A stretch of 64,000 nucleotides of DNA from Trypanosoma brucei. Lineage: Eukaryota. Each line of letters begins with the position of its first letter. The first letter of the stretch is position 1. The stretch covers positions 2,656,001 through 2,720,000 of the forward strand of contig CM000207.1 of NCBI GenBank assembly GCA_000002445.1, given 5' to 3'. A program made the translations under genes and the position numbers. Of the stretch, positions 1,194 through 57,577 are shown in pieces. Below the pieces are notes generated by a model that was not told the DNA's origin, ran no database searches, and saw nothing but the letters and a program-made list of their open reading frames with translations.

Positions 1194-4100
1194 ATTTTCT
1201 TCGTGCCTTCGTGGGAGTTTCCCCCCACTGGCGCGACCATCAGCCATCACCGTAGAGCCCTGAGATGCTATCGGTCTGGCGACTGTGGCAGAGTCTCCCT
1301 TTTTTATTCAGCCTAACACACTCTCTATAATTTTTGTTGTAGCTCCGCAGTTGAACGGAATACAGCAGATGGGGCGAGAAGCCACCCAACCCGGACTCTC
1401 CCAAAGATGTCAATTAGCAACCCTTTTGTTTTTATTTTTGTTATTCGTTTATTATTCTCTCCCCCTCTTTCTGTTTTTGTTGCTTGTTGACTGCATACCC
1501 CCTCTGTCTCTGAGGGTGTCTGGACTATTCCTGCGTCCGGTGCTTTTCCTGCTAGCTCCACACTCGGCAATAAGGGGGAAAGTTGCAGAAAGGAAAGTGG
1601 GTTGTATAACTGTTACATTAGGGGAGGACTTCACATGCGGCCGGTTCCGTTCAACCGCAATGAGAAATTGCGCCAGCCTTTTAGAGAATCATACATCCTG
1701 CACACACACACCTTATACAGCTAACCTGACACGTAGTTCCTTCAAACCGGGACAGCTCATCAGGTGCAGCGACGTTTCTTCGCAGTCGCCGCGTTGTCTG
1801 GTAACAGCGCGCTCTACCTTCATACCGTGCATCTTATTTTGATGGAGGGTGAGGCCAGTTTTGCTAGCACACTGCCTTCAGCATGTCGGGCACACCAACA
1901 TGGATGTGTTTGTATGCGGGGAATCAGTGGCACACAATTTTGTGCTTTTGCTGCATTTAAGCTCGACTCCCTCACCTTTGTGGAAAGCCTTACAGTGTCG
2001 GATGAGAGAATCCCTGCAACTGAGCACTTTTTGACACACACCACACTGCACCTCTCCTTTCCCAGTGGCGTCAACGTTTTCCTCACGGGCACGCTTACGA
2101 GGGAATTGCACCACCACTACGGTACCGTCCTCCATCACTATGCTCTTATGTTTGAATTTCTTGTGTAGTGACCGGGAAGAGCGTGTACCGAAGCTCGTCT
2201 CGCACAGGTCACATTGAAACGGCAGCTTCCGTGTATCCTGAGAGACTGGCGCTGCTGGGGCTCTACCATCTCCTTGCAATGAGTCCTCGTTCTCTCGCCC
2301 CCTTTTCACGCGGCAACTACCGCTACCTATGCCATGTATTGTTCTAAGGTGGTGTAGTAGTGGGCCTGGTACTGCGAATTTGGAGGCACAGATGGTACAA
2401 TGAAGCACCTGCGGTCTCATCGGGACTCGTGTGCTCGATGGTAGAGGAACGATCGCCACCACTGGAGGGGGCTCCGGGGGGATATCCACTGCGGGTGTTG
2501 CATCGCCGTATTTGATCCTCCGGAGGGCATCAGCTCGCACAAAGCCATGTTTGTTTACCATGTGCGTTACAGTACTCGAGCGGCATTGGTATGTGGCATC
2601 ACATTCCGTACATTTGGTCGGTTCGGAGGTTCTCTGAAGAGTGCGTGTCGCAACAGTTGGGACTGTTTGTATTGTTGGCCCTATCGCTGCATGTTGTGGG
2701 TTGCACCATCGGCACTGTGGAGGCACACTCGGGTTGATCTTTCGCAACATCCATCCATAGTGTCTTGAAGACCCAACCCGAAAGCGTGCCAGTGCTGTTT
2801 CTTCTTCCCTCGTCAGTTCTTCTTTATGTTTTGTTGGAAAGTGGTTGCCCGTGATACCAAACCTATGAGTGTTCTCATGGACTTCTTCCGACCTAAGCAC
2901 TCGCTTCGCATAAGCAATGATGTCGGGGATCCATGTATCTCGCAACTGTGGTAAATCAGCGGCCTTTTTGGCCATTTCATCACAAACCTCATTCCGTTTC
3001 ACGCCACAATGGCCAAACACAAATTGCAGTCGGATACGTATCTTCCTTCTCTGAACTTGAAGCAGAAGCCTCCATAGTCGTCTTAGAATTGGGTCCGTTA
3101 CGGCTAGGGTGCCTGTCTGCAGTGCTGTTAACATTGACAGCGAGTCAGAGAAGATGGACAACCTGCTAGGTGTGCTTCTGTATGCCGGAAGCCATTTCAG
3201 CAGCCGTTGCAGTTCTATCTCTAATGCTACGCATTCCGCTCTGTAACTGCATGAGAGTTCCCCTGCTCCGGTTTTGGGTGCACAAATCAGCGTGTTGTTT
3301 CTATAGAGCAGGGCAGCTGCTCCGGACTTCTCACCGAGGGACACGGATCCATCAGTCCACAATTCGTAGTGCTCTCGCCGCGGTGGCTCCTTCCCCCTCC
3401 GTGCAAAATGTCGTTCAATCCACTTTTCGGAAGCCTCCCTTTTGACATCGTCAGGGTCATCAGCGCACACAGGCTTTATCTGCGTGTGAAATAGCGGTCG
3501 GCAGCTGTGGCGGAGCGTCGATGTCTCCAGTGGGTGCTCGCGTGGCTCAATGTGGAGAAGAGGGTACGACAGCATGATGCGGGAATGTTGGGCTCTGACT
3601 GGGTGTTTGCTGTGGTATACTTCTTCAGCACTGCGCCGCAAACATCCGCCTCGTGACTCACACATCAGCATGAATTTCATGCTGTGCACAAGAGTGGCCG
3701 TCTTGAGTGGCAGGAGGTTTGCTTCCAGCAGAGAGTCCTCTTTGCGCGTCCCATGCGGTATGCCGGCTATGATGCGACTGGCTTTGTGTTGTGCTGCTGC
3801 AAGGAGGTCGCGACTTCGTTCCGAAGCGTCCCAGTACCATACCTCAATGCCATACATGGTGTGTGCCTGTACGAGTGCTAGATAAAAAGCTCTCAGCACT
3901 TGTCGTCTTGGCCCCCATGTAGAAGCTGAGATGGCTGCTATCTGCAGTAGTCGGAAGTCCATCTTGCGTCTCGTTTCGGCCGCATGTGTTGCCATCCCCT
4001 GCAGACGCTGGAATGTTACTCCGAGAAGCTTCGGTGTCCTGTCAGCTCCTATTCTTTCGCCGTCCAGTTGCAATGTAAGGGGATGGCGCTCTGTACACCC

Positions 4101-6440
4101 CAAGAGTGTGCACTTTGTTTTTCGCTACGTTGACAGACATAAAGTACTCTTTTGACCACTGTAACACAACGTTTAGGCCGCATTGCAGTGTGTGGTTGAT
4201 GACATCCCTCTCTGTGTGCCTCGCAAGTAGCGTTAGGTCGTCTGCAAAGAATCCGTGCTGCAGTAACGGCACTTCTGCAAGGCGTTGGCTCAACGAGTTC
4301 ATGACAATAATGAACATGATTGGGCCAAGGACAGTTCCTTGTGGCACTCCTCGCTCAAATGTTCTGCTTCTGGAAAGCTTCTCCTTGAATCTCACTCTGC
4401 CAGTTCGGTTACTCAGAAATGATACGCACCACTTCACAATGTAGGGTGATACCTTCATTCTGTGCATTTCCCTCGCAATTTTGTCGTGGTCTACTGTATC
4501 GAATGCCTTCGCGTAGTCAACGAATACAGCACCCGTACGAGATTGGTGCGTGGGACGGCAGAGGGCAGCGCGGACGTGCAGGAGTTGTTCGAGTGTTGAG
4601 CATCCGGGGCGAAAGCCTGATTGCTGCGGCGTCAGCTGGGACTCAACAGTGTCTCTATGCCTCGCGGCAATTATGCGCTCCATGACTTTGCAGAGACAGC
4701 TCGTGAGCGTCACAGGCCTGTAAGAATCGAGGTCCTCCGCCTTTTTTCCGGCCTTCAGGATGGGGATGATAACACCAATCTTCCATGCAGGCAGCACGAC
4801 TCCCGTTCGTAGGCTCTCATTGAATAGCCTTAGAACAACATTCAGCGCTGTTCTGCCGAGATATTGCAGTGCCTCGTTGTATAAGCAATCAGGTCCGGCT
4901 GCGGATCCACTCGGAAGTAGTTTGATCGATCTCCGTAGTTCAGCCATCGTGATGGGACTGAACTCACTCGCTATCGTCTTTATGGGTGCTGGTGGGTGTG
5001 AGTCGGGGTGCCTTCTTGCACGGGACGAGTACAGTTTACTGAACCTCTCAGCTTGACGGTAGTCCGTGATGGCCGCGTTATCAACAAGTACCGCCAGTGT
5101 GGTTAGTGGTCGTGGCGCATATACCTTCTTGACAATGTGCCAACTGCAGCGGTCTGACACCGCAAGTCTGGAGCATAGCGTTCTCCATCTCTTCTTTGTG
5201 GTACGGTCCAGGATCTGCTTACGCGTGGCTACCAACATTTCCCTTCGGTGGGAGGGTCCGCATCCAGCGATCTCTTCATCGAGTTTAGTGAGCGTTGGTG
5301 TCCAATGTGGTGGCGTTGCTCTGCAGCCACGGGGGACGAACATCTTCGTCGCAATGCGGATGGCGGAGCTCAATTTCTGTTCCAGGGTGTTGACGTTCTT
5401 CTCTCTACCAATTTTCCTGCAGAGCTCGTCAACCTTGAGACGGAAATTCCTCCAGTTAGCTTTTAGCCATACGTACATGGGCATTCGAGGCCGCGTGCAA
5501 CTCAGTGCATCTGTGTCGTCTCCAACGATAACGTCGAAAAATATGTTATGGTGATCGCTATCGGGAGAATACAGCGATGTCCACGTGTACACTGTGCAAT
5601 TCCTTGACAGTGTCACATCAAGGGTAGATTCCCCGTGGTGGCGCGCGTACCTGGTGCACTCACCAGTGTTGCAGACCAGAAACTGGTTGTCAATGCACCA
5701 CTGTGTGAGGGTTTCACCCTTGGTATTTGGTGGGCTCGTGCGATCCCATGCCAACGCGTGTGCGTTAGCGTCTGCACCGATGAGCTGGGCACCGTCAGTT
5801 GTCAGAAGCGTATCTAGGTCAGTTGCCGTGAAGGTGTGTTTTGGTGGGATGTATGCCGACGTGACAGTCAGCGCCGTTCCACGTGCAAGGTGAATTGTTG
5901 CATGCACTTGTTCAATGCGACCAACAACGGCCATACCGGTCTCGACTAGTAAGTCCTCCCTCACTAGTATTGATACACCACCTCCTTTGCAGTTACGAGC
6001 TATTCCGTGATGTTGGTAGCCAGCAACGCTAAAGCAAGCCTCCTCTCCAAGCGTCATCCTTGTCTCGCTCAACAGACAAAAGGCGATCCGCTCATCAACA
6101 AGGGTTTTGTGGAGTGCTAATCTCTTTCCTTGAGATAGCCCGGCGCAGTTCCACTGCATCCCGCGCAACGACGGGCCGGGATTCTCTTCCACATCACCGG
6201 ACAGCAGCATCTTAGTGCGGATGATACTGCTGATGGCACGCTTTGACGTGCCCAGGGACCGACAAATGAAAAACGGTGTCCCAGCAAGACGCTGCTGATC
6301 CCTGTGCTGTATCATCGGGGAAAGCCAAGAGGCAGCAGTGTTTCCCATGAAAGGAACGCTGCTAGCTCTTGGCTTCCCCCGATGATACGGGGTACTGGAT
6401 CCTGGCACCACGTTGAGGTGCCTGACATGCGGAAGGCAGT
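1194..6440 (-). mobile_element. ingi non-LTR (LINE-like) retrotransposon, full length (~5.25 kb), degenerate (one frameshift and a premature stop)
   Basis: Two overlapping minus-strand ORFs (4042..6462 and 1878..4103). They encode an N-terminal APE-type endonuclease, a 2A-like GDVEENPGP motif, a reverse transcriptase with an FADD box, an RNase H-like region and four C2H2 zinc fingers. About 98% identical at protein level to the element at 34021-39272. The 3' end (GAAGAAAATTTTAAAAAA, read as a T-run at 1194-1199) matches ingi 3' ends. Confidence 0.9.
1878..4103 (-). CDS. ingi ORF, C-terminal part: RT thumb, RNase H-like (ELWTDGS) and C2H2 zinc fingers. It ends ~50 codons early, at a TGA where the other copy reads TGCGGAAGG.
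   Basis: 741-aa ORF in the track, in a different frame from the 4042..6462 ORF. Zinc-finger motifs seen: HCTICASKF...HHLRTIHG, CDLCETSFGTRSSRSLHKKFKH, CGVCQKVLSCRDSLIRHCKAFH. Confidence 0.8.
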   Translation of the reverse strand: MGCTERHPLTLQLDGERIGADRTPKLLGVTFQRLQGMATHAAETRRKMDFRLLQIAAISASTWGPRRQVLRAFYLALVQAHTMYGIEVWYWDASERSRDLLAAAQHKASRIIAGIPHGTRKEDSLLEANLLPLKTATLVHSMKFMLMCESRGGCLRRSAEEVYHSKHPVRAQHSRIMLSYPLLHIEPREHPLETSTLRHSCRPLFHTQIKPVCADDPDDVKREASEKWIERHFARRGKEPPRREHYELWTDGSVSLGEKSGAAALLYRNNTLICAPKTGAGELSCSYRAECVALEIELQRLLKWLPAYRSTPSRLSIFSDSLSMLTALQTGTLAVTDPILRRLWRLLLQVQRRKIRIRLQFVFGHCGVKRNEVCDEMAKKAADLPQLRDTWIPDIIAYAKRVLRSEEVHENTHRFGITGNHFPTKHKEELTREEETALARFRVGSSRHYGWMLRKINPSVPPQCRWCNPQHAAIGPTIQTVPTVATRTLQRTSEPTKCTECDATYQCRSSTVTHMVNKHGFVRADALRRIKYGDATPAVDIPPEPPPVVAIVPLPSSTRVPMRPQVLHCTICASKFAVPGPLLHHLRTIHGIGSGSCRVKRGRENEDSLQGDGRAPAAPVSQDTRKLPFQCDLCETSFGTRSSRSLHKKFKHKSIVMEDGTVVVVQFPRKRAREENVDATGKGEVQCGVCQKVLSCRDSLIRHCKAFHKGEGVELKCSKSTKLCATDSPHTNTSMLVCPTC

Positions 6441-6462
6441 GTGCTAGCAAAACTGGCCTCAC
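4042..6462 (-). CDS. ingi ORF, N-terminal part: AP-endonuclease domain, 2A-like peptide (GDVEENPGP at ~6171-6198) and most of the RT domain. Truncated by a frameshift near 4042-4103. The extreme 5' end of the listed ORF reads through the fold-back junction and is not genuine.
   Basis: 806-aa ORF in the track. Motifs seen: MQWNCAGL...LSETRMT (endonuclease), FRPGCST, VFVDYAKAFDTVDHD, FADDLTLLA (RT). Confidence 0.8.
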   Translation of the reverse strand: MRPVLLAHCLPHVRHLNVVPGSSTPYHRGKPRASSVPFMGNTAASWLSPMIQHRDQQRLAGTPFFICRSLGTSKRAISSIIRTKMLLSGDVEENPGPSLRGMQWNCAGLSQGKRLALHKTLVDERIAFCLLSETRMTLGEEACFSVAGYQHHGIARNCKGGGVSILVREDLLVETGMAVVGRIEQVHATIHLARGTALTVTSAYIPPKHTFTATDLDTLLTTDGAQLIGADANAHALAWDRTSPPNTKGETLTQWCIDNQFLVCNTGECTRYARHHGESTLDVTLSRNCTVYTWTSLYSPDSDHHNIFFDVIVGDDTDALSCTRPRMPMYVWLKANWRNFRLKVDELCRKIGREKNVNTLEQKLSSAIRIATKMFVPRGCRATPPHWTPTLTKLDEEIAGCGPSHRREMLVATRKQILDRTTKKRWRTLCSRLAVSDRCSWHIVKKVYAPRPLTTLAVLVDNAAITDYRQAERFSKLYSSRARRHPDSHPPAPIKTIASEFSPITMAELRRSIKLLPSGSAAGPDCLYNEALQYLGRTALNVVLRLFNESLRTGVVLPAWKIGVIIPILKAGKKAEDLDSYRPVTLTSCLCKVMERIIAARHRDTVESQLTPQQSGFRPGCSTLEQLLHVRAALCRPTHQSRTGAVFVDYAKAFDTVDHDKIAREMHRMKVSPYIVKWCVSFLSNRTGRVRFKEKLSRSRTFERGVPQGTVLGPIMFIIVMNSLSQRLAEVPLLQHGFFADDLTLLARHTERDVINHTLQCGLNVVLQWSKEYFMSVNVAKNKVHTLGVYRAPSPYIATGRRKNRS

Positions 6463-7126
6463 CCTCCATCAAAATAAGATGCACGGTATGAAGGTAGAGC
6501 GCGCTGTTACCAGACAACGCGGCGACTGCGAAGAAACGTCGCTGCACCTGATGAGCTGTCCCGGTTTGAAGGAACTACGTGTCAGGTTAGCTGTATAAGG
6601 TGTGTGTGTGCAGGATGTATGATTCTCTAAAAGGCTGGCGCAATTTCTCATTGCGGTTGAACGGAACCGGCCGCATGTGAAGTCCTCCCCTAATGTAACA
6701 GTTATACAACCCACTTTCCTTTCTGCAACTTTCCCCCTTATTGCCGAGTGTGGAGCTAGCAGGAAAAGCACCGGACGCAGGAATAGTCCAGACACCCTCA
6801 GAGACAGAGAGGGTATGCAGTCAACAAGCAACAGGAACAGAAAGAGGGGGAGAGAATAATAAACGAATAACAAAAATCAAAACAAAAGGATTGCTAATTG
6901 ACATCTTTGGGAGAGTCCGGGTTGGGTGGCTTCTCGCCCCATCTGCTGTATTCCGTTCAACTGCGGAGCTACAACAAAAATTATAGAGAGTGTGTTAGGC
7001 TGAATAAAAAAGGGAGACTCTGCCACAGTCGCCAGACCGATAGCATCTCAGGGCTCTACGGTGATGGCTGATGGTCGCGCCAGTGGGGGGAAACTCCCAC
7101 GAAGGCACGAAGAAAATTTTAAAAAA
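6424..7126 (+). mobile_element. Partial ingi: last ~690 bp (end of ORF plus 3'UTR) in plus orientation, fused head-to-head to the 5' end of the minus-strand ingi
   Basis: ORF 6413..6598 (CLTCGRQCASKTGLTLHQNKMHGMKVERAV...) equals the ingi ORF C-terminus at 38575-38741. Sequence 6600-7126 is nearly identical to 38745-39272 and ends GAAGAAAATTTTAAAAAA (7121-7126). Confidence 0.85.
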
Positions 7127-7544
7127 GTGAGAAGGATGGAAAAAACTGCAAATCTAACACGAAAGCAATATAGAAAACAGCAATACAAACAGGAACTGAA
7201 GGGACGCAAACTTCTTCAAAATGCAAATATAACCAACAGAGAGATTGCACTAGCAATTGAAAATAGGAAAATAATGCTTTCAAAGACTACAGGTTCCTTG
7301 TAAATAATAATTATTTCTGATTATAATTGTCTTTATGAGTTGTGTGGTATTTTGAAACTTCTAGTGAATTTTTTGCTCAATTTTAAAATTTATGAAGATG
7401 TGTAAATGATAAAGATATTAAAAATACAAAATTTTAATATAATAGTAGTCTATAGGTGTAAAGTATGATGTTAGTGTATGAAATGCGTGTACTAATAAGC
7501 AACATTCTTTTTTTTTAGTTTTTGTCGATTTTACGGATATTAGT

Positions 7545-7700
7545 TAGGGTATGAGAGTATTAGAAATAGTAGTAATAGGAGAGTGTTGTGAATGTATATA
7601 CGAATATTATAATAAGAGCAGTAATAATAGTAATAATGATAATAATAATGATAGAAAGGGGTTGTGAGTGTGTTTTATTATTATTGGGAGATTTATGATA
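7545..7700 (+). repeat. 70-bp repeat (plus orientation), right arm of the inverted repeat; upstream boundary of the VSG 8635-10215 cassette
   Basis: GGAGAGTGTTGTGAATGTATATACGAATATTATAATAAGAGCAGTAATAATAGTAATAATGATAATAATAATGATAG ... GTTGTGAGTGTG. Confidence 0.8.
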
Positions 7701-8634
7701 AACCCAAAATAGCGGAAGAGGTGTTAACGAAAGAAACGGCTAGATTTCATTTTAACAGCACTTTTATTTATATAAAGAAATACAGGAATTGCATTAGCAG
7801 AAACGTTGGTAAGGGGAAGCTATCCTAAGTCAATCGCTTCGGGAAGGCAAACGGCAATTTTCGAGGCTGATGTAACGGCAGCGGCACAATCGATGAACGT
7901 GCAATAACTTGAATAGAGCCAACGGCGAACGTCAAGGATGACGCAGAAATAAACTATTGTTACACACCAATTGGTAAAACTAATGTTGCAATTAGCAGCA
8001 GAGCTAATTCTCATAGAGATATTGCTGTAAAGCAAATGACTGTTGGCAATGACTGGGGTTGTGAGCCCTCAAAACTGAACAAAGCTTTACAATACAGAGA
8101 TCCGGTAGAGGAATTTAAACAGCTAACAGTAAAGGGTCATAAAAAGCGAAGGGGTCTTCGTGTGTTTCATTTAATTTTGTAAGCGGTGGAAGTCTATGAC
8201 CGCTGACTAGCAGCGATGTGAAGCAGATAAGACAGTGGATCAACCAGAATTTAAGGGGAATCACCAATTTTACAGAAAATTCGGTAAAAAAAATAACTAT
8301 CACAGGGCAAACTGCTGTAAGGATTAAGATATAGACAGATGGCGCCACCAACATACAATGCTATTTTTTGTTTTCTTCATAACGCGGAGTGCAAGCAAAG
8401 GTGACTAAGTATTTTTGTAGCAGCTATTCTGATGGCGGCACTGCAAGTAACAGATAAACAAAGAATGACCGACCGGAACTCAAAAAACAGGCTGCAAGCC
8501 ACACTTACTCGTGCTTGGCAGTAAGAGCCAAATCCCCAAAACTGTAAGCACGTAGCATTCTAACCCTAAGCACACTTAACTGCAGGATTTATAACATATA
8601 CCTAAGTATAGCGAGAAGCAAAGACGTTAAAAAG

Positions 8635-10215
8635 ATGCACACCGCACTAATTTGCGCGGTATTACTTACAATGGCGATGGTGTTGCGACAGCAGGCACAA
8701 GGTGCCGTGAAAGACAACGAACACGGCGGTGATTGTGCCGCCCTTTGTGGCCTCATCCAATTTGCCGAACCAAATACGCCAGCTATCAGCCTTCCTCAAG
8801 AGATAACAGAAATAGCTGACGAACTGTTGGCAGTGAACCTGAGCATGAGCGAAGCTGCACTTCAGCAACTAGTAACAAAGCACAAAGACAAGAGCTGGGA
8901 TGACATTCCAGCCAGCGACAAACCAGCCGCACAACCTTACAAGGAGCACTGGCAGCACTGGCAAAAGTTGGCAGCAGACCCAAAACCGGAAACTGTAAAA
9001 TTCAAACTAGAGCAGTTCAGAAAAGTCAGTCAAAACACCATGGCAAAAAACAAATTTCATCTTATAGCTGACGCGGCGTTGGAGTTAGCGACAGAGGCAA
9101 AAATGCTACTGCAGAAGAAAACCAAAACGGATATAGACACAAAACTAACAAAAGCACTAAATGGCAACAATGCACCCACAAACACGTTCACGTTTTCAGG
9201 CAAGACCCGATCGCAACTGTGCGGAACTGGAACGACAACACCTGGAGAACAAGCCGGAAAGGCGTTATTGGTTGACCTTTTGTGCATTTGTGCGGGTGCC
9301 AATACAGATACCACAGCAGGCAAAAGCTGCTGCAAGGGATGCGAAACAAACCCAAACCACGATGAGTGGCAACCAGCTACAAACGCCAAACTACGAGCCG
9401 AACACATAGCCAAGCAATGCCCAACCACAAGGGCAACAGCAGATAAGAGCACAACAAAGCTCCACCACCTGCTAGGAGATTTCTATACGCAAGTAAACAC
9501 GGCAAAAGGCACAGGACAAGAGATGAAATACGCCCTCGGAACTGTCGGCGGCAACGGAAACGACGGTTGCACCGGCAAGGTAGGAAGCACCAACAACGGC
9601 AGATGCGTCAAGTACACGGACAACAGCATTCTTAAGGGGACACCGCAACTTGACTGGGTGCAGAACCTCATCGACGCCGCTGCCGACTATGACGCAAGGA
9701 CAGACAACATGAACAAGATACAACGGATAGCGGATAAAATGGAGGTACTAAACAAAACCGCAACAGCATTGCTTTGGGAACAACAGCCAGTCCCAATCCT
9801 CCAAACAAAAGCGGCAACAACTACAACTCATCAAACAGCAGAGGAGACAAAACAAGAATGTAAGGCGATAACGAAAGCAGCTGACTGCAACAGCAATGGA
9901 AACTGCAAATGGACCAAACCAGACGTAAAAACAGGAACTCACTGCGAATTAAATACGACAACGAGCGAACAAGCAGCCCAAACAGGCGGAGGAGCTGCAG
10001 GAGCAACCACAACTGTAAAATGCTCTGATTATGGCACGAAAGACAAATGCGAAGAAGTCAACAAAGGAAAAGACAAACCTGTCTGCGGCTGGAGAATAGG
10101 CAAAGATAATGAAGATGATAAAGGTACAGAAAAATGCCGTGATTCCTCTATTCTACCAAACAAACACTTCGCCCTCAGCGTGGTTTCTGCTGCATTTGCG
10201 GCCTTGCTTTTTTAA
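8635..10215 (+). CDS. VSG: Variant surface glycoprotein (VSG), apparently intact (526 aa): N-terminal signal peptide, Cys-rich C-terminal domain, GPI-anchor signal
   Basis: Single uninterrupted ORF. N-terminus MHTALICAVLLTMAMVLRQQAQG. C-terminus ...CGWRIGKDNEDDKGTEKCRDSSILPNKHFALSVVSAAFAALLF*. 70-bp repeat ~900 bp upstream and 16-mer 3'UTR element downstream. Confidence 0.9.
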   Translation: MHTALICAVLLTMAMVLRQQAQGAVKDNEHGGDCAALCGLIQFAEPNTPAISLPQEITEIADELLAVNLSMSEAALQQLVTKHKDKSWDDIPASDKPAAQPYKEHWQHWQKLAADPKPETVKFKLEQFRKVSQNTMAKNKFHLIADAALELATEAKMLLQKKTKTDIDTKLTKALNGNNAPTNTFTFSGKTRSQLCGTGTTTPGEQAGKALLVDLLCICAGANTDTTAGKSCCKGCETNPNHDEWQPATNAKLRAEHIAKQCPTTRATADKSTTKLHHLLGDFYTQVNTAKGTGQEMKYALGTVGGNGNDGCTGKVGSTNNGRCVKYTDNSILKGTPQLDWVQNLIDAAADYDARTDNMNKIQRIADKMEVLNKTATALLWEQQPVPILQTKAATTTTHQTAEETKQECKAITKAADCNSNGNCKWTKPDVKTGTHCELNTTTSEQAAQTGGGAAGATTTVKCSDYGTKDKCEEVNKGKDKPVCGWRIGKDNEDDKGTEKCRDSSILPNKHFALSVVSAAFAALLF

Positions 10216-10275
10216 ACCAAATTTCCCCCCTCTTTTTAAAAAACTTTGCTAAAATTTTTGCTACTTGAAAACTTC

Positions 10276-10291
10276 TGATATATTTTAACAC
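10276..10291 (+). promoter_or_regulatory. Conserved VSG 3'UTR 16-mer TGATATATTTTAACAC (mRNA-stability element)
   Basis: Exact 16-mer 61 nt after the VSG stop codon. Confidence 0.8.
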
Positions 10292-10404
10292 CTAAATTAA
10301 GCCGAGTTTTTTTGTTGTTTGTTAAGTTTGAGATTCTGTAAAAAATATTTTCTGTTTTTCTGGCAACTAAAATTTTTTTCTTTTTCCCGTTTTTTTTTAT
10401 GTGC

Positions 10405-22331: not shown

Positions 22332-23840
22332 ATGAACACTCACGCGGTAATCGCTCTAGTGGCAGTAGCGGTAGCCGAAACACGCGCGACACCCGATGCA
22401 ACAGCCTGTACCACAAACTGCTGCTGCTGGGAAAGACTTGAAAAACAAATAGACGTCTACAGAGGCGATTACTCAGCAGCCGAAGAAAACCTAGAAGAAA
22501 ACAAAAAGAACTTCGGAAAAATCATCGCAGCAACTGTACTAGGCAGCGAAGACCTAAAAGCGAAGCTAGCACCAGTACTGCTATCGGCGGCAGAGATCAT
22601 CAAGGAAAGCGAGGAAGAGTTAGCAAAAGCAAGTCCTGCTACGGCAGCTGCCAAAGCACAAATCGCGGAGCTACGGACAATGTACCTCGTCCAGCAGCAA
22701 CGTCTAGCAACAGGATGTGGAGAGATTAAAATCCACGTGCAAGACGACAACTTCATCAACACCGAAAAATAAGTAACAAAGGCTAGCCTAGGGACCATCG
22801 CGAAAAATAGTTGCGAAGGTGACCTTAAAAGCCTGGACGCCCAACCTATAGACAATACAAACATCGACGAAGAGCAACCCACGCCCAAAATAATAACCCA
22901 CGTACATGTCGAGGCGCGGTGTCAACGCGACGGCACGGGCACCAACGAATGCCACGACGGCCAGCTAGGGGGCGGCGGACAGCTGGAGTTCGCACTAAAA
23001 TACGACGACAAAACAACAAAAGACATAACAACATGGGTCACCGGGACAAGCACAGCGAAACAGATATCGGCCACGGCGGTAGACTTCATCGGCAACCTAA
23101 ATACAGAAGTCAATACGGCGATAAAAGGATTAAAAAACACCAATCCAGCACCCGCATGCACCAAAAAAATTCGCGACTACGCCACCATCGCAGAGAACAG
23201 CAAATTCAATTTGATGGTAACAAAAGCGCTTATCGGCAAAACAGAAGCGGAAGAGGGCCAAGAGTCAAAAGACCCAGAATTAGCGACAGCAATAACAAAA
23301 TACTACGGTACCGAAGGCACAAAATTTGAGGAGCAACTTTGGAAGGCAATTGAAAGAACGCCAGCTTACTTCGGAAATCAGAAAAAAGAGCAAATCGCAA
23401 AAATAGAAAACCTAGAAACACTAACAGCAGTCGGTGAAGCCACAGCTAGAGGCCTCGTCAAACAAATAGCTGCCGAAGCACAAGCACGAAAAGCGGCTTC
23501 TGGTGACAATCAATCGGCAGAAAAACAATGCAGTGGAAAAAAGGGAACTGAATGCACAGGAGATTGCGAATGGGATAAGGAAAAAGAGACTTGCACGCAC
23601 AAAAAGAAAGGGAAGGTAGAAATCAAACCAGGAGCAGCTTCAGAAAACAAATGCTCTGCCACACAGACCCCTGAGGATTGCACCAAAATAAGTGGAACAA
23701 CTCCAACAGGAAAGAAAGCCTTTTGTGAATGGATTACTTATGTCGAAGACACTGGTCCAGTAACTCCTGGATGCCGCTCTTCCAGTTTTCCTGTAACTAA
23801 GAAAATTTATCTGATGGCTGCTGCTATTGTGAGTTTGTAG
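22332..23840 (+). pseudogene. VSG pseudogene (frameshifted); signal peptide, Cys-rich C-terminal domain and GPI signal present
   Basis: ORF 22332..22772 MNTHAVIALVAVAVAETRA... ORF 23211..23840 ends ...CSGKKGTECTGDCEWDKEKETCTHKK...FCEWITYVEDTGPVTPGCRSSSFPVTKKIYLMAAAIVSL*. The middle part is in other frames. Confidence 0.8.
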
Positions 23841-34043: not shown

Positions 34044-37000
34044 GTGGTGCCATGGTCCAGTACCCCGTATCATCGGGGGAAGCCAAGAGCTAGCAGCGTT
34101 CCTTTCATGGGAAACACTGCTGCCTCTTGGCTTTCCCCGATGATACAGCACAGGGATCAGCAGCGTCTTGCTGGGACACCGTTTTTCATTTGTCGGTCCC
34201 TGGGCACGTCAAAGCGTGCCATCAGCAGTATCATCCGCACTAAGATGCTGCTGTCCGGTGATGTGGAAGAGAATCCCGGCCCGTCGTTGCGCGGGATGCA
34301 GTGGAACTGCGCCGGGCTATCTCAAGGAAAGAGATTAGCACTCCACAAAACCCTTGTTGATGAGCGGATCGCCTTTTGTCTGTTGAGCGAGACAAGGATG
34401 ACGCTTGGAGAGGAGGCTTGCTTTACCGTTTCTGGCTACCAACATCACGGAATAGCTCGTAACTGCAAAGGAGGTGGTGTATCAATACTAGTGAGGGAGG
34501 ACTTACTAGTCGAGACCGGTATGGCCGTTGTTGGTCGCATTGAACAAGTGCATGCAACAATTCACCTTGCACGTGGAACGGCGCTGACTGTCACGTCGGC
34601 ATACGTCCCACCAAAACACACCTTCACGGCAACTGACCTAGATACGCTTCTGACAACTGACGGTGCCCAGCTCATCGGTGCAGACGCTAACGCACACGCG
34701 TTGGCATGGGATCGCACGAGCCCACCAAATACCAAGGGTGAAACCCTCACACAGTGGTGCATTGACAACCAGTTTCTGGTCTGCAACACTGGTGAGTGCA
34801 CCAGGTACGCGCGCCACCACGGGGAATCTACCCTTGATGTGACACTGTCAAGGAATTGCACAGTGTACATGTGGACATCGCTGTATTCTCCAGATAGCGA
34901 TCACCATAACATATTTTTCGACGTTATCGTTGGAGACGACACAGATGCACTGAGTTGCACGCGGCCTCGAATGCCCATGTACGTATGGCTAAAAGCTGAC
35001 TGGAGGAATTTCCGTCTCAAGGTTGACGAGCTCTGCAGGAAAATTGGTAGAGAGAAGAACGTCAATACCCTGGAACAGAAATTGAGCTCCGCCATCCGCA
35101 TTGCGACGAAGATGTTCGTCCCCCGTGGCTGCAGAGCAACGCCACCACATTGGACACCAACGCTCACTAAACTCGATGAAGAGATCGCTGGATGCGGACC
35201 CTCCCACCGAAGGGAAATGTTGGTAGCCACGCGTAAGCAGATCCTGGACCGTACCACAAAGAAGAGATGGAGAACGCTATGCTCCAGACTTGCGGTGTCA
35301 GACCGCTGCAGTTGGCACATTGTCAAGAAGGTATATGCGCCACGACCACTAACCACACTGGCGGTACTTGTTGATAACGCGGCCATCACGGACTACCGTC
35401 AAGCTGAGAGGTTCAGTAAACTGTACTCGTCCCGCGCAAGAAGGCAACCCGACTCACACCCACCGGCACCCATAAAGACGATAGCGAGTGAGTTCAGTCC
35501 CATCACGATGGCTGAACTACGGAGATCGATCAAACTGCTTCCGACCGGATCCGCAGCCGGACCTGATTGCTTATACAACGAGGCACTGCAACATCTCGGC
35601 AGAAAAGCGCTGAATGTTGTTCTGAGGCTATTCAATGAGAGCCTACGAGCGGGAGTCGTGCTGCCTGCATGGAAGATTGGTGTTATCATCCCCATCCTGA
35701 AGGCCGGAAAAAAGGCGGAGGACCTCGATTCTTACAGGCCTGTGACGCTCACGAGCTGTCTCTGCAAAGTCATGGAGCGCATAATTGCCGCGAGGCTTAG
35801 AGACACTGTTGAGTCCCAGCTGACGCCGCAGCAATCAGGCTTTCGCCCCGGATGCTCAACGCTCGAACAACTCCTGCACGTCCGCGCTGCCCTCTGCCGT
35901 CCCACGCACCAACATCGTACGGGTGCTGTATTCGTTGACTACGAGAAGGCATTCGATACAGTAGACCACGACAAAATTGCGAGGGAAATGCACAGAATGA
36001 AGGTATCACCCTACATTGTGAAGTGGTGCGTATCATTTCTGAGTAACCGAACTGGCAGAGTGAGATTCAAGGAGAAGCTTTCCAGAAGCAGAACATTTGA
36101 GCGAGGAGTGCCAAAAGGAACTGTCCTTGGCCCAATCATGTTCATTATTGTCATGAACTCGTTGAGCCAACGCCTTGCAGAAGTGCCGTTACTGCAGCAC
36201 GGATTCTTTGCAGACGACCTAACGCTACTTGCGAGGCACACAGAGAGGGATGTCATCAACCACACACTGCAATGCGGCCTCAACGTGGTGTTACAGTGGT
36301 CAAAAGAGTACTTTATGTCTGTCAACGTAGCGAAAACAAAGTGCACACTCTTCGGGTGTACAGAGCGCCATCCCCTTACATTGCAACTGGACGGCGAAAG
36401 AATAGGAGCTGACAGGACACCGAAGCTTCTCGGAGTAACATTCCAGCGTCTGCATGGGATGGCAACACATGCAGCCGAAACGAGACGCAAGATGGACTTC
36501 AGAATACTGCAGATAGCAGCCATCTCAGCTTCTACATGGGGGCCAAGACGACAAGTGCTGAGAGCTTTTTATCTAGCACTCGTACAGGCACACACCATGT
36601 ATGGCATTGAGGTATGGTACTGGGACGCTTCGGAACGAAGTCGCGACCTCCTTGCAGCAGCACAACACAAAGCCAGTCGCATCATAGCTGGCATACCGCA
36701 TGGGACGCGCAAAGAGGACTCTCTGCTGGAAGCAAACCTCCTGCCACTCAAGACGACCACTCTTGTGCGCAGCATGAAATTCATGCTGATGTGTGAGTCA
36801 CGAGGCGGATGTTTGCGGCGCAGTGCTGAAGAAGTATACCACAGCAAACACCCAGTCAGAGCCCTACATTCCCGCATCATGCTGTCGTACCCTCTTCTCC
36901 ACATTGAGCCACGCGAGCACCCACTAGAGACATCGACGCTCCGCCACAGCTGCCGACCGCTATTTCACACGCAGATAAAGCCTGTGTGCGCTGATGACCC

Positions 37001-37382
37001 TGACGATGTCAAAAGGGAGGCTTCCGAAAAGTGGATTGAACGGCATTTTGCACGGAGGGGGAAGGAGCCACCGCGACGAGAGCACTACGAATTGTGGACT
37101 GATGGATCCGTGTCCCTCTGTGAGAAGTCCGGAGCAGTTGCTCTGCTCTATAAAAACAATACGCTTATTTGTGCACCCAAAACCGGAGCAGGGGAAATCT
37201 CATGCAGTTACAGAGCGGAATGCGTAGCATTAGAGATAGAACTGCAACGGCTGCTGAAATGGCTTCCGGCATACAGAAGCACACCGAGCAGGTTGTCCAT
37301 CTTCTCTGACTCGCTGTCAATGTTAACAGCACTGCAGACAGGCCCCCTAGCCGTAACGGACCCAATTCTAAGACGACTATGA
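34044..37382 (+). CDS. ingi ORF part 1 (endonuclease, RT, RNase H-like); terminated by TGA where the other copy has TGG (Trp)
   Basis: 1112-aa ORF. ...LAVTDPILRRL* here vs ...LAVTDPILRRLWRLLLQVQRRK in ORF 1878..4103. Confidence 0.85.
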   Translation: MVPWSSTPYHRGKPRASSVPFMGNTAASWLSPMIQHRDQQRLAGTPFFICRSLGTSKRAISSIIRTKMLLSGDVEENPGPSLRGMQWNCAGLSQGKRLALHKTLVDERIAFCLLSETRMTLGEEACFTVSGYQHHGIARNCKGGGVSILVREDLLVETGMAVVGRIEQVHATIHLARGTALTVTSAYVPPKHTFTATDLDTLLTTDGAQLIGADANAHALAWDRTSPPNTKGETLTQWCIDNQFLVCNTGECTRYARHHGESTLDVTLSRNCTVYMWTSLYSPDSDHHNIFFDVIVGDDTDALSCTRPRMPMYVWLKADWRNFRLKVDELCRKIGREKNVNTLEQKLSSAIRIATKMFVPRGCRATPPHWTPTLTKLDEEIAGCGPSHRREMLVATRKQILDRTTKKRWRTLCSRLAVSDRCSWHIVKKVYAPRPLTTLAVLVDNAAITDYRQAERFSKLYSSRARRQPDSHPPAPIKTIASEFSPITMAELRRSIKLLPTGSAAGPDCLYNEALQHLGRKALNVVLRLFNESLRAGVVLPAWKIGVIIPILKAGKKAEDLDSYRPVTLTSCLCKVMERIIAARLRDTVESQLTPQQSGFRPGCSTLEQLLHVRAALCRPTHQHRTGAVFVDYEKAFDTVDHDKIAREMHRMKVSPYIVKWCVSFLSNRTGRVRFKEKLSRSRTFERGVPKGTVLGPIMFIIVMNSLSQRLAEVPLLQHGFFADDLTLLARHTERDVINHTLQCGLNVVLQWSKEYFMSVNVAKTKCTLFGCTERHPLTLQLDGERIGADRTPKLLGVTFQRLHGMATHAAETRRKMDFRILQIAAISASTWGPRRQVLRAFYLALVQAHTMYGIEVWYWDASERSRDLLAAAQHKASRIIAGIPHGTRKEDSLLEANLLPLKTTTLVRSMKFMLMCESRGGCLRRSAEEVYHSKHPVRALHSRIMLSYPLLHIEPREHPLETSTLRHSCRPLFHTQIKPVCADDPDDVKREASEKWIERHFARRGKEPPRREHYELWTDGSVSLCEKSGAVALLYKNNTLICAPKTGAGEISCSYRAECVALEIELQRLLKWLPAYRSTPSRLSIFSDSLSMLTALQTGPLAVTDPILRRL
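34258..34284 (+). other. 2A-like 'self-cleaving' peptide motif GDVEENPGP near the N-terminus of the ingi polyprotein
   Basis: GGTGATGTGGAAGAGAATCCCGGCCCG translates to GDVEENPGP, matching the D(V/I)ExNPGP 2A consensus. The same motif is in the first ingi (~6171-6198, minus strand). Confidence 0.8.
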
Positions 37383-37412
37383 AGGCTTCTGCTTCAAGTT
37401 CAGAGAAGGAAG

Positions 37413-44239: not shown

Positions 44240-44400
44240 TCAAAACGTGTTAAAATATATCAAATTTAAGCTGAATTTTATGAAATTTATGAATTATTCA
44301 TTTTGAGAGAAATTTCTAAAAGTGAGCAAAAATCCTAAATATTTTTTTCCTCAAATCAAAAATGCAAGCAAAAGAGGGTCCTTTATCACAAAAGAATTTT
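44240..44400 (-). pseudogene. VSG 3'-end fragment (minus strand): tail of the C-terminal domain plus 3'UTR with an exact 16-mer
   Basis: Reverse complement of 44247-44262 is TGATATATTTTAACAC. ATGCAAGCAAAAGAGGGTCC at ~44360 is the reverse complement of a ...DPLLLAF GPI-tail coding sequence. Confidence 0.6.
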
Positions 44401-44860
44401 CCATGTGGTGTTTGTGTGGTTTTTCTATCATTTTTACTCGTTCCCGCTTATTTTTCTACTTCCTTCTTGATTTCCTCACTCAATCTGAGCATTTTACCCT
44501 AGACGGATTTTGGGTTAAAAACGTACCCCTGGGAGTTGAGCGTCTTTGTTCGTTGGGTGTCAGCGGCAGATTGTGTAGTCGCTCCTTAATTTCTGATCTT
44601 TATAATCGCCATTTCACAAATAGTTTCCCCTTTCTTTATTTACTTTTTGAAAACAAATCGTTTGGCTCACCGAAACTGCAGCGCGCCAGCGTAAAAAAAT
44701 GTCGCGTGCAGTGTCATAGGCCGCGGTCCATATTTTTTTAAAATTGATACCGCGCGCAGCACGAAATGCAGAGCTGAAATCCACAGAAGCAAAAAAAGTT
44801 AAAACTACGGGCTAAGGTGCAGGTGAAAAAATTAAGTGGAGTTGGACGTGGGGGGCAAAT

Positions 44861-45035
44861 AAGGGTTAGGGTTGCATTAAAAAAGAGCGGCTGCATCATT
44901 AAAAAAAAAAAGAGAGCTAAAGTCGCTACAGTTCACTGCTATTAAAAAAACTTATTAGTAGCAGGAGAAATAACCCTAACCCTAACCCTAACCCTAACTA
45001 ACCTAACTACCCCCCCCATTCCTACCTACCTACAA
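44861..45035 (-). repeat. Telomere-hexamer inverted pair unit: plus strand reads AAGGGTTAGGGTT, ~95-bp A-rich spacer, then (AACCCT)4 and TAACCTAACTACCCCCCC
   Basis: GGGTTAGGGTT at 44863-44873; TAACCCTAACCCTAACCCTAACCCTAAC at 44971-44998. The reverse complement of the right end (GGGGGGGTAGTTAGGTTAG(TTAGGG)4) matches GGGGGAGGTAGTTAGGTAGGA(TTAGGG)3 at 10423-10463. Confidence 0.75.
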
Positions 45036-45149
45036 AAATAAAAAAACAGGAAAGAAGAAAAAAAATTTTAGCTGTCAGAAAATATTTTTTTACAGAATCA
45101 CAAATTTTTACAAACTTTACAACAAACAAAAAAACTCGGCTGGTTTTAG

Positions 45150-45165
45150 GTGTTAAAATATATCA
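45150..45165 (-). promoter_or_regulatory. VSG 3'UTR 16-mer (reverse complement GTGTTAAAATATATCA on the plus strand)
   Basis: Exact reverse-complement match, downstream (on the minus strand) of VSG 45245-46796. Confidence 0.8.
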
Positions 45166-45244
45166 GAAAGTTTTCAAGTAGCAAGAAATTTTTTGCAAGG
45201 AAAATTTTAAAAAGAGGGGGGGAAACTTAAAAAAGCAAAAATGC

Positions 45245-48480: not shown

Positions 48481-48686
48481 GATTATTTATCCGTTAAAAG
48501 CAAACAGGATCGGGAAAAGCCATAGGCGGCACGCTGCCGTTTTTTAAGAGAAAAAGAAAAGAAATTTGGTTCCGTTTCTATCACAAGAAGCAGAGCTGAA
48601 ACTCTCAAAAGTGTGAAAAGTGTAATTATGACAAATCGCTAGCGAGTTTGGTTCTTCAAATTTAAGCAAATATTTCTGCACTGTAA

Positions 48687-48800
48687 ATAAGGGTTAGGGT
48701 TCACGTAAAAAAGAGCTGCTGCATAACTAAAAAAAAGCTAAAGTTGCAACGCTTCACCACCAGTAAAAAACAAAAAAATTAAAAATTATAACCCTAACCC
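48687..48800 (-). repeat. Telomere-hexamer inverted pair unit (TAAGGGTTAGGGTT, ~85-bp A-rich spacer, ATAACCCTAACCC)
   Basis: Spacer has the shared core AAAAAAGAGCTGCTGCATAACTAAAAAAAAGCTAAAGTTGCAACGCTTCACCACCAGTAAAAAA, as in the unit at 44861. Confidence 0.7.
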
Positions 48801-48999
48801 GCAAGAGGCTAGCTCGATAACCTGCGAGGCTCGTGCCGCTGACCAATCAAAAGATTACAGTGGCCGCCAAAACAAAAATATCGAGGCCCAAAAGGAATGA
48901 AAAAAAAATTAAAATCATTAAAAAGTTTTAAAAATAGTGTTGAAAACGAAAAAGATGATAAACTAAATAAATTAAGTGGCGCCTCACGGCTGAGGTGCG

Positions 49000-49152
49000 A
49001 ATAAGGGTTAGTGTCATCGTAAAAAAAGCCGTTGCATTAATTAAAAAAAAACAAAAAATTATAATAAAGGGATAATCGGGCAATAAAAAAACAACTGATA
49101 AGAGGAGAAATAACCCTAACCTGAATAACCCTAATCCTAAGCCTAAGCCTAT
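49000..49152 (-). repeat. Telomere-hexamer inverted pair unit, more degenerate (AATAAGGGTTAGTG, spacer, AATAACCCTAACCTGAATAACCCTAATCCTAAGCCTAAGCCTA)
   Basis: Same spacer architecture (AAAAAAAGCCGTTGCATTAATTAAAAAAAAAC...). Hexamers partly mutated (CCTAAG, CCTGAA). A tandem second copy 200 bp from the unit at 48687. Confidence 0.65.
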
Positions 49153-49413
49153 CCATAAACTGAGCCCGGATAACCCTCCCTAGCCTCCATACCTAACTTT
49201 CCTAACCTCCTTTCTTCTTTTCTCCTCTCGTCTTACGCAGATTTATGCACAAAAAAATCAACAATAAAAAGGGGAATTTTTACTCATCAGAAGAAAAAAT
49301 TTACAGAATCACACATGCAGTCAGATTTTTTATAAAAACACACAATTTCCGGTGAACTTACGTGTTATAATATATAAAATTTCAGCAAAGGTAAATTGAG
49401 GGGAGAAATTTGT

Positions 49414-57206: not shown

Positions 57207-57340
57207 GGGTAAATAAGGGTCATATCACGCGTCAAAAAAAAAGAGCCAGTTCACACCTAAAGGAAAAAGCTCATGTCGTGATGCTTCACTGCTAGTAAAA
57301 AAAACCAAAATAAAAATAAAAAGTCATAACCCTAGCCCTC
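57207..57340 (-). repeat. Telomere-hexamer inverted pair unit, degenerate (GGGTAAATAAGGGTCAT, ~100-bp A-rich spacer, CATAACCCTAGCCC), followed by (CT)6
   Basis: Spacer core AAAAAAAAGAGCCAGTTCACACC...GCTTCACTGCTAGTAAAAAAAACC is homologous to the other units. It sits directly after the 3'UTR of VSG 57625-59181. Confidence 0.6.
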
Positions 57341-57561
57341 TCTCTCTCTCCTTCCTATCTATTCTCCTGCCTTCTTTGTGTTTACGGCGCTTGGGTTGGT
57401 GGACAAAAAATCAACAAAAAAAATTAAATTCTAAAATGCCAAAACCTTTTTGAAAAGAACCTGAAACCTAAAAATAAAAAAAGGAGAAAAGTTTTAGCCA
57501 TCATCAAAAAGATTACACGCTTAGGCAGAACGAAAAATTAATTATTTTCAGGGTAACTTAC

Positions 57562-57577
57562 GTGTTAAAATATATCA
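57562..57577 (-). promoter_or_regulatory. VSG 3'UTR 16-mer (plus strand GTGTTAAAATATATCA)
   Basis: Exact reverse-complement match. Confidence 0.8.

Follow-up and report, generated by a model that had tools for sequence, protein, structure and literature searches.

Silent subtelomeric VSG array cassettes were reportedly characterized by Berriman et al. in 2005 and by Marcello & Barry in 2007, and intact genes make up a minority of the VSG archive. The arrays are tandem, are interrupted by ingi elements and consist mostly of pseudogenes. Each of their cassettes carries a 70-bp repeat upstream of the gene and a 16-mer in the 3'UTR, and activation follows an order that leads from telomeric VSGs to intact array VSGs and then to pseudogenes (PMC3467770). 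Telomere-proximal VSG loci provide the other point of comparison for the locus described here. In expression sites the distance from VSG to telomere is 200-1590 nt (PMC2567434), and TTAGGG-like repeats are given as a mark of telomere-proximal VSGs in the portion of PMC3708902 that cites Aline & Stuart 1989; according to this portion and to PMC2567434, these repeats occur a few hundred nt downstream of the gene, with the G-rich strand pointing outward.

The gene under study lies on the plus strand at 8635-10215 of a 64,000-nt stretch of T. brucei brucei TREU927 DNA (contig CM000207.1, positions 2,656,001 to 2,720,000; hereafter the window), and further VSG cassettes are found on both sides of it. 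Its cassette consists, in order, of a 70-bp repeat, a flank, the VSG, a 3'UTR that carries the 16-mer, a module some 400 nt long, an orphan VSG fragment and the 70-bp repeat of the next cassette. The upstream 70-bp repeat, the 16-mer in the 3'UTR, the tandem arrangement, the ingi elements and the neighbouring pseudogenes are all as in silent subtelomeric arrays, from which this cassette differs in nothing of kind. Overall, we consider it very probable that this is a silent-array cassette of TREU927 with an intact and already annotated class-B VSG (XP_827750.1), and that the telomere-like hexamers behind the gene belong to a repeated, telomere-derived family of flanks.

The coding sequence (8635..10215, plus strand) runs from ATG to TAA and specifies a class-B VSG of 526 aa. 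It comprises a signal peptide at about residues 1-23 (8635-8703), an N-terminal domain at residues 13-370 (8671-9744; Pfam VSG_B, PF13206, E 1.2e-75, profile positions 2-351 of 352), a C-terminal domain at residues 409-525 (9859-10209; Pfam Trypan_glycop_C, E 4.4e-25, profile positions 1-104 of 104) and, after the omega-site residue Asp503, a GPI signal of 23 aa (S504-F526, 10144-10212). The protein aligns over its full length, GPI signal included, with the functional VSG3 (PDB 6ELC), which occupies an expression site in strain 427, and its hydrophobic N-terminus MHTALICAVLLTMAMVLRQQAQG and 23-aa tail SSILPNKHFALSVVSAAFAALLF align with the VSG3 counterparts, both signals being assigned by this alignment. 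The uninterrupted frame, the two full-length Pfam domains and the VSG3 alignment bear out the initial annotation, which had described a clean 526-aa open reading frame with signal peptide and GPI signal.

The same protein is present in the TREU927 reference annotation as XP_827750.1 (EAN77420.1, Q38CQ0), under the name "variant surface glycoprotein (VSG), putative", with 526 of 526 residues identical and zero differences between the two products. The gene at 8635-10215 is an already annotated reference gene and an ordinary silent-array VSG. Its reference annotation is free of the atypical label, and the TREU927 annotation has separate product names for other cases ("VSG, atypical" and "VSG, pseudogene"). 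The "atypical" label was seen on one T. equiperdum match.

An intact relative is found in another strain. Lister 427 VSG-352 (AGH60929.1, M4SXX4) aligns without gaps and is identical at 509 of 526 residues (97%); its set of Cys (including Cys34, discussed below), its C-terminal domain and its GPI signal are all the same. The two proteins differ at 17 residues, several of which are grouped at residues 239-253, where the TREU927 and Lister 427 alleles each agree with a different EATRO1125 relative. This pattern is mosaic and resembles what gene conversion might leave. ARB50559.1, in which the C-terminal two-thirds contain residues specific to TREU927, may be a mosaic derived from the gene at 8635-10215. 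Since an intact orthologue of 97% identity exists in another strain, the gene at 8635-10215 is itself not young. The protein matches included no near-identical TREU927 paralogue of the kind that the initial annotation had suggested looking for among telomeric and minichromosomal copies. No expressed copy was found in the literature searchable by VSG-352, XP_827750, Q38CQ0, EAN77420 and ARB50559, in the supplements of PMC4858185, PMC10374056 and PMC12137147, or in the protein cluster to which the gene belongs, which together make a weak negative.

A hidden defect, such as a missing conserved Cys pattern, had been raised as a concern about this gene. In an alignment of 36 class-B sequences, all of the invariant or near-invariant Cys (8 of 8 in the N-terminal and 8 of 8 in the C-terminal domain) are kept, and no conserved Cys is absent. 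The alignments also place a Cys at residue 34 (codon TGT, 8734..8736, plus strand), the usual position of Phe in the class-B consensus GxNxxxFxxLC, which brings the mature N-terminal domain to 11 Cys, an odd number. This Cys34 also occurs in Lister 427 VSG-352, while P0015 and P0002 have Phe instead. The AlphaFold2 model of the protein has a mean pLDDT of 76, with most of the N-terminal domain above 85, and its predicted N-terminal fold matches those of solved class-B VSGs (8B3W, VSG11 and VSG3): Foldseek scores against solved class-B VSGs range from E 7e-17 to 3e-9, the match to 8B3W (mVSG1954) having E 7e-17 and a target-normalised TM-score of 0.80. The solved proteins mVSG1954 (8B3W), VSG3/MITat1.3 (6ELC), VSG11 and VSG615 share the domain family and the predicted fold, but their N-terminal domains are only 16-23% identical to that of the protein studied here, which is normal for VSGs, and they lack the extra Cys34.

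These observations bear on whether the gene might have a cryptic defect, or be atypical, and be unable to make a working coat, owing to the extra Cys34 or to the spacer of the GPI signal (SSILPNKH...). The replacement of the consensus Phe, the 11 Cys of the mature N-terminal domain and the lack of an expressed copy in the searched papers and supplements lean that way, but we regard such a defect as very unlikely, given that both Cys34 and the GPI-signal spacer are kept in Lister 427 VSG-352, that the GPI signal is kept in ARB50559.1 as well, that the conserved Cys are complete, that the N-terminal model is confident and VSG-like, and that the reference annotation has no atypical label. The proposal that this gene is a candidate functional silent donor gains support from the identity with the reference protein, the conserved Cys, the VSG3 alignment, the class-B fold and the Lister 427 orthologue.

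As had been claimed, no other VSG in the window is uninterrupted. The sole other open reading frame of VSG size (12257..13804, 515 aa, A-type) was considered as a second intact gene and rejected: the frame closes with ...CCKWEKYCLQRLRFSCK, and the degenerate GPI signal, CKDYGFLVNNKIFLLSTTFMSLVTY, falls outside it, in the +1 frame. The earlier count of nine other copies proved too low, as about 14 other VSG-sized units are present, besides at least four orphan C-terminal fragments. Nor are all of them frameshifted; some are, but the unit at 22332-23837 is interrupted by one in-frame stop, and that at 57628-59184 by two, without any frameshift. Pfam recognised no N-terminal domain in the units at 18.8, 32.3, 41.8, 45.5 and 54 kb. 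Among these, the VSG identity of the 45.5-kb unit was confirmed through the match of its N-terminal domain to VSGsur (PDB 6Z79, E 7.7e-5), and the other four are VSG-like by position and C-terminal remnants only.

On its left side the cassette is bordered by an inverted repeat of 1188 nt, the right arm of which (6408..7595, plus strand) is 99% complementary to the left arm (716-1903). The right arm contains the 3' portion of one ingi retroelement, a flank and the start of a 70-bp repeat; by blastn, 6900-7657 matches 1411-646 at 97.3%, and 6900-7126 matches the 3' end of a second ingi (39043-39269) at 99.6%. The 70-bp repeat (7557..7685, plus strand) comprises about 1.3 copies by our reading of the sequence (GGAGAGTGTTGTGA..., TAA/TGA triplets, ...GGTTGTGAGTGTG), with triplet repeats detected by TRF at 7609-7654, and it resembles the 70-bp repeats 5' of other cassettes, for example that at 11596-11707 (82% by blastn). 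About 950 nt of upstream flank separate it from the coding sequence. Within this flank, TTCTAACCCTAA at 8558-8569, 65 nt 5' of the ATG, was considered as a second telomeric relic and discarded: the match needs two mismatches, and matches of this quality are also seen within ingi elements and in other places.

The 3'UTR begins with a C-rich motif, TTTCCCCCCTC (10222-10232, plus strand), and contains the exact VSG 16-mer TGATATATTTTAACAC at 10276-10291 (plus strand), in agreement with the initial annotation. Exact copies of the 16-mer number six in the window, the other five standing behind pseudogenes or fragments, and the element is not peculiar to the intact gene. It is followed by the proximal part of the module (10292..10438, plus strand), which includes GATTCTGTAAAAAA (10332-10345) and GTAGTTAGGT (10430-10439) and is defined by homology: 187 of 207 columns (90%, z ~38) are identical to a minus-strand pseudogene flank at 45229-44999. 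Next comes the telomere-like hexamer tract (10439..10464, plus strand), with 4.3 copies of period 6, a 95% match and one mismatch. The tract begins 147 nt past the 16-mer and 224 nt past the stop codon, contains (TTAGGG)3 at 10444-10461 and points its G-rich strand away from the VSG. It is indeed the only plus-strand telomere-like tract in the window, and (TTAGGG)3 does lie about 150 nt past the 16-mer, but it is not the best preserved, a distinction that belongs to a minus-strand tract at 44971-44998 (4.7 copies, 100% match).

The distal part of the module (10465..10616, plus strand) includes ATGCAGCGGCT (10574-10584) and TAACCCTTATTTG (10603-10615), the latter a C-strand-like motif in inverted orientation, and was likewise delimited by homology, being 67-76% identical to other module copies (z 2.6-8.9). 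Homology to the module stops at about 10616. Beyond this point the flank of the intact gene shows no homology to the three minus-strand flanks (z <3), which continue to be homologous to one another. Further downstream lie an orphan fragment of a VSG C-terminal domain that has a GPI signal of its own (11024..11377, plus strand; ...CRSSSFLVNKKLALMSACFMDLLF*; Trypan_glycop_C, E 4.2e-14, profile positions 31-104) and then the 70-bp repeat of the next cassette (11562-11734, by blastn).

Three sister modules are found on the minus strand, each behind a pseudogene. The one at 44858..45165 follows the frameshifted A-type VSG of the 45.5-kb unit, the N-terminal domain (45531-46823) and C-terminal domain (45230-45481) of which are in different frames. 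It shows, in order, an exact 16-mer (45150-45165), the perfect (TTAGGG)4.7 tract, which starts 151 nt past this 16-mer, and ATGCAGCCGCT...AACCCTAACCCTTATTTG; it is followed by a C-terminal remnant that includes an exact 16-mer (44247-44262). The second (48686..49377) lies behind a B-type VSG with two frameshifts (49417-50985). Its hexamers at 49114-49146 are degenerate, a further submodule extends from hexamers to TAACCCTTATT (48686-48803), and an orphan C-terminal fragment comes next at 48192-48431. In the third (57212..57577), behind the B-type VSG with two in-frame stops, only CTAGGGTTA remains of the hexamers, and an orphan C-terminal fragment follows at 56590-56850.

The full order of motifs (16-mer, GATTCTGTAAAAAA, GTAGTTAGGT, hexamers, ATGCAGCSGCT and TAACCCTTATT) is seen in two VSG units, that of the intact gene and that at 45.2-46.8 kb, and a degenerate form of it in two further units, as judged by blastn and by eye. 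A conserved 3' module some 400 nt long, with hexamers at a fixed position, is thus common to the intact gene and three pseudogenes. Its copies form a diverged family of repeats that are 67-90% identical, with significant homology both before and after the hexamer tract. In two of its copies the hexamers have 0-1 mismatch in 26-28 nt, compared with about 70-80% identity in the distal part. Behind three of the four modules lies a C-terminal-domain fragment confirmed by Pfam, and behind the remaining one a short C-terminal remnant that carries an exact 16-mer. In cassettes that lack the module, about 150-220 nt separate the 16-mer from the 70-bp repeat that comes next, and the flanks of hexamer-free VSG units have only the 16-mer in common with it. 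Because the right-hand junction behind the intact gene differs from that of the three minus-strand copies, accounting for the family takes two or more independent events or, failing that, a subsequent rearrangement. The module was not found in three T. equiperdum loci (about 34 kb with roughly 8 VSG units, which have no bearing on telomeric flanks), and hence it is not universal. The literature searched yielded nothing specific on interstitial or telomere-like repeats in VSG arrays.

How the hexamers came to lie behind the gene can be viewed in several ways. A product of chance or slippage in AT-rich intergenic DNA, unrelated to telomeres, might be suspected from the shortness of the tract (26 nt) and its low-complexity surroundings; against this, TTAGGGTTAGGG is matched 8 times in the window when one mismatch is allowed, compared with 0.13 expected by chance, and all clear tracts have the same orientation and the same position behind a VSG, within a homologous module. 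This origin is already disfavoured, to the point of having almost no probability. A telomere-type origin of the 3' flank is plausible, its ancestry being read from the hexamers and the literature: the orientation is telomeric, and the distance of 224 nt falls within the 200-1590 nt of expression sites (PMC2567434). The initial annotation is followed this far in seeing a telomere relic, but recency is unsupported. Unlike in telomere-proximal loci, the tract at 10439-10464 has only about four repeats, is internal and leads into no terminal telomere array; after it come unique, non-telomeric DNA, the orphan C-terminal-domain fragment and about 50 kb of further VSG cassettes. A tract of 4.3 repeats followed by such DNA is at most a relic and does not make this a telomeric locus.

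The initial annotation had gone on to see a recent transposition from a telomeric site. On this model the VSG would have moved, with a telomere stub, from an expression site or a minichromosome, and would be intact because it has had little time to decay. Besides the orientation and distance noted above, such a move would fit the near-perfect hexamers, the lack of any other intact VSG among about 15 units and the right-hand junction that the module behind the gene shares with no other copy. The 99% inverted repeat, which ends in the upstream 70-bp repeat, would also fit recent recombination bounded there; it is the sole sign of recent change, and it hints at a change that could have affected either side. 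Nevertheless, the same module stands behind three pseudogenes, one of them with a longer, perfect tract, and consequently it neither dates the arrival of the VSG nor explains its intactness. The module copies have diverged from one another by 10-30%, and within the window intact genes number 1 of 4 among module-bearing units and 0 of 11 among the remainder, an association that is not significant (Fisher p ~0.27, by our own arithmetic). Together with the intact 97% identical orthologue in Lister 427 and the lack of a near-identical TREU927 paralogue among the protein matches, these observations make a recent move unlikely, and we do not retain it as the explanation for the intact frame.

We therefore return to the reading of an array cassette with a flank from a repeated family. 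From established VSG biology, the gene at 8635-10215 would be silent in place and would be used through gene conversion into a telomeric bloodstream expression site, with the conversion probably limited 5' by the 70-bp repeat and 3' by the conserved region of the C-terminal domain and 3'UTR. Being intact, it could be copied whole and would rank above pseudogenes in the activation hierarchy. A VSG locus close to a telomere would be the ancestor of the family of hexamer-bearing flanks. The flank might have reached the array when a telomeric VSG and the DNA behind it served as the template for repair of a break in a resident array gene, the copy then being rejoined in front of the C-terminal part of that resident gene; the copied flank would later have been duplicated and have diverged.

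The gene itself has little discovery value, as it is already in the reference annotation, and the precedence of intact array VSGs over pseudogenes is textbook knowledge. The analysis does correct one point: a few TTAGGG repeats 3' of an array VSG should not be taken for evidence of recent arrival or of function, since in this window they belong to a flank family that stands mostly behind pseudogenes. It is conceivable, at rather long odds, that the module, in which the VSG 3'UTR is followed by about 150 nt of conserved sequence, the short TTAGGG tract, about 110 nt and an inverted CCCTAA-like motif, is more than a product of decay and is a maintained "telomere-mimic" flank, which might add 3' homology to expression-site telomeres or provide for TRF/RAP1 binding or base J; if so, it could raise the probability of activation or recombination for some array VSGs. 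A genome-wide census of the module might reveal a traffic of material between telomeres and arrays.

The plus-strand VSG at 8635-10215 is the only uninterrupted unit among the approximately 15 VSG-sized units in the window, as proposed in the initial annotation. Its ORF runs cleanly from ATG to TAA and encodes a 526-aa protein in which Pfam recognises both VSG domains in full, the B-type N-terminal one at residues 13-370 (E 1.2e-75) and the C-terminal one at residues 409-525 (E 4.4e-25). The protein is identical to a T. brucei brucei TREU927 entry named "variant surface glycoprotein (VSG), putative" (XP_827750.1 / EAN77420.1 / Q38CQ0); the window therefore comes from the reference genome, the gene is already annotated and the feature already known, and its reading as a functional silent donor, a function predicted from sequence, agrees with this annotation. 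The 3'UTR carries a C-rich motif (10222-10232, +) and the conserved 16-mer, which is exact as reported (10276-10291, +). It is followed by a telomere-like hexamer tract of 4.3 copies with one mismatch (10439-10464, +), 224 nt past the stop codon and 147 nt past the 16-mer, matching the roughly 150 nt noted previously. Such tracts are far above chance expectation in the window, with 8 matches to TTAGGGTTAGGG at up to one mismatch versus 0.13 expected.

A cryptic defect, such as a missing conserved cysteine, had been suggested as the test of this reading. In an alignment of 36 class-B sequences, no invariant or near-invariant cysteine is missing from this VSG, which retains C38, C196, C217, C219, C232, C262, C312 and C324 in the N-terminal domain and C409, C418, C424, C437, C463, C472, C484 and C501 in the C-terminal domain. 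The protein also aligns end to end, GPI signal included, with VSG3 (6ELC), a functional coat protein, and its AlphaFold2 model (mean pLDDT 76, N-terminal domain mostly >85) matches class-B VSG structures, the best being mVSG1954 (E 7e-17, target-normalised TM-score 0.80). The sole oddity is Cys34 (TGT, 8734-8736, +), at a position where the family consensus is Phe, which brings the mature N-terminal domain to 11 cysteines, an odd number. While absent from the 89% and 84% identical relatives, Cys34 is common to Lister 427 VSG-352 and is therefore not a fresh lesion.

VSG-352 (509/526 residues identical, or 97%, with zero gaps) and ARB50559.1 (89% identical) are the two further members of the 90%-identity protein cluster of this VSG, while EATRO1125 relatives are 72-84% identical and have ends that look truncated or frameshifted. 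Differences between the TREU927 and Lister 427 alleles are clustered at residues 239-253 (about 9349-9393; TNPNHDEWQP...KL versus TSPNNSNWDT...KP), and each version agrees with a different EATRO1125 relative; this patch looks like segmental gene conversion inside a small VSG subfamily. The proposed search for an expressed copy gave a weak negative: VSG-352 and the accessions were not found in the searchable literature or in three supplementary sets, and the protein cluster contains no expressed clone, though the same collection has clusters resembling expressed TREU927 clones.

The VSG cassettes lie on the plus strand from 8.6-33.8 kb and on the minus strand from 41-64 kb, and one ingi-type retroelement sits at each strand switch: at about 1.2-6.4 kb (1878-6462, -; long ORF split into 741 and 806 aa) and about 34.0-39.3 kb (34044-38741, +; 1112 and 442 aa). 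The initial annotation was largely right, with three details overstated. It counted nine other VSG copies of full-length size, against about 14 others found here, to which at least 4 orphan C-terminal fragments can be added. Several of the other units are indeed frameshifted, but those at 22332-23837 (+, one stop) and 57628-59184 (B-type, -, two stops) carry in-frame stops only. Almost intact is an A-type VSG with a 515-aa ORF (12257-13804, +), whose N-terminal domain is complete and C-terminal domain mostly present; its sole visible defect is a frameshift just ahead of a degenerate GPI signal, leaving the latter in the +1 frame near 13750-13850, and an exact 16-mer follows at 13917. The window has six exact 16-mers, of which all but the one behind the intact VSG sit behind pseudogenes or fragments. 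Among the cassettes, an ORF fragment at 51233-51781 (-, FKFAVYTFKSANPYIMKADDDIFMRVP...) weakly resembles a galactosyltransferase in Pfam (E 0.043) and may be a glycosyltransferase pseudogene.

The hexamer-bearing 3' flank belongs to a module present in four copies, with the motif order 16-mer, GATTCTGTAAAAAA, GTAGTTAGGT, (TTAGGG)n, about 110 nt, ATGCAGCSGCT and TAACCCTTATTTG. The full order is found behind two VSGs, the intact one (10276-10616, +) and an A-type VSG broken by frameshift (45.2-46.8 kb, -; module 44858-45165, -). Degenerate copies follow a B-type VSG carrying two frameshifts (49.4-51.0 kb; module 48686-49377, -, including a second submodule at 48686-48803, -) and the two-stop B-type VSG at 57.6-59.2 kb (57212-57577, -), where the hexamers are reduced to CTAGGGTTA. 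Hexamer position is fixed, and an inverted CCCTAA-like motif lies ~110 nt beyond. The tract behind the intact VSG had been considered the best preserved; that of the 45-kb copy (44971-44998, -) is longer, with 4.7 copies, and free of mismatches (100% match); it begins 151 nt past an exact 16-mer. When homology was scored by segment, these two flanks were 90% identical (187/207, z about 38) from stop codon to hexamers, whereas hexamer-less VSG units shared the 16-mer alone with the intact VSG. From hexamers to TAACCCTTATTTG all copies are 67-81% identical, mostly significantly; beyond it the three minus-strand copies are homologous to each other (z 8-27) but not to the plus-strand copy (z <3). 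A VSG C-terminal-domain fragment separates each of the four modules from the next 70-bp repeat, compared with about 150-220 nt from 16-mer to repeat in ordinary cassettes. Three are Pfam-confirmed orphans (11024-11374, 48192-48431 and 56590-56850), and the fourth, after the 45-kb module, consists of a short remnant carrying an exact 16-mer at 44247.

The orientation and spacing of the tract agree with published expression-site telomeres, where 200-1590 nt separate VSG and repeats (PMC2567434), and TTAGGG-like repeats are described as a mark of telomere-proximal VSGs in a passage citing Aline & Stuart 1989 (PMC3708902); it is therefore reasonable to see this flank as telomere-type in ancestry. 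We infer that the composite layout of full VSG, hexamer flank and tail of another VSG resembles the outcome of copying a telomeric VSG into an array gene already in place. The recent arrival proposed initially is unsupported. The module copies form a family that has been duplicated and has diverged; three of the four here, including the one with the best tract, lie behind pseudogenes, so tract preservation does not date the event. Within the window, the association between module and intactness is not significant (1/4 intact with, 0/11 without), and Lister 427 holds a 97% identical, intact orthologue. No near-identical TREU927 paralogue occurs among the protein matches, in a reference set that excludes minichromosomal VSGs. 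One hint of recent change beside the gene is a 1188-nt inverted repeat (arms 716-1903 and 6408-7595, 99% identical, extending to 646 and 7657) bracketing the minus-strand ingi element, although it indicates neither the date nor which side changed, the cassette or its mirror image. Each arm comprises an ingi 3' part, about 430 nt of flank and the start of a 70-bp repeat; the outer ends fall within 70-bp repeats on both sides, beyond which the sequences differ. A divergent strand switch is marked by this inverted repeat, which resembles a recent inverted duplication, or else a conversion delimited by 70-bp repeats, and is compatible with the 70-bp repeat as a recombination boundary.

Following established VSG biology, this VSG would be silent in place, and its activation would proceed through duplicative gene conversion into an expression site at a telomere, limited upstream by the 70-bp repeat and downstream by the conserved C-terminal-domain/3'UTR region, after which the 16-mer would support high mRNA levels in bloodstream forms. 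Telomeric VSGs are activated first, then intact array genes, then pseudogene-derived mosaics (PMC3467770). Donation of a 3' end at switching could restore a near-intact copy such as the 515-aa A-type VSG.
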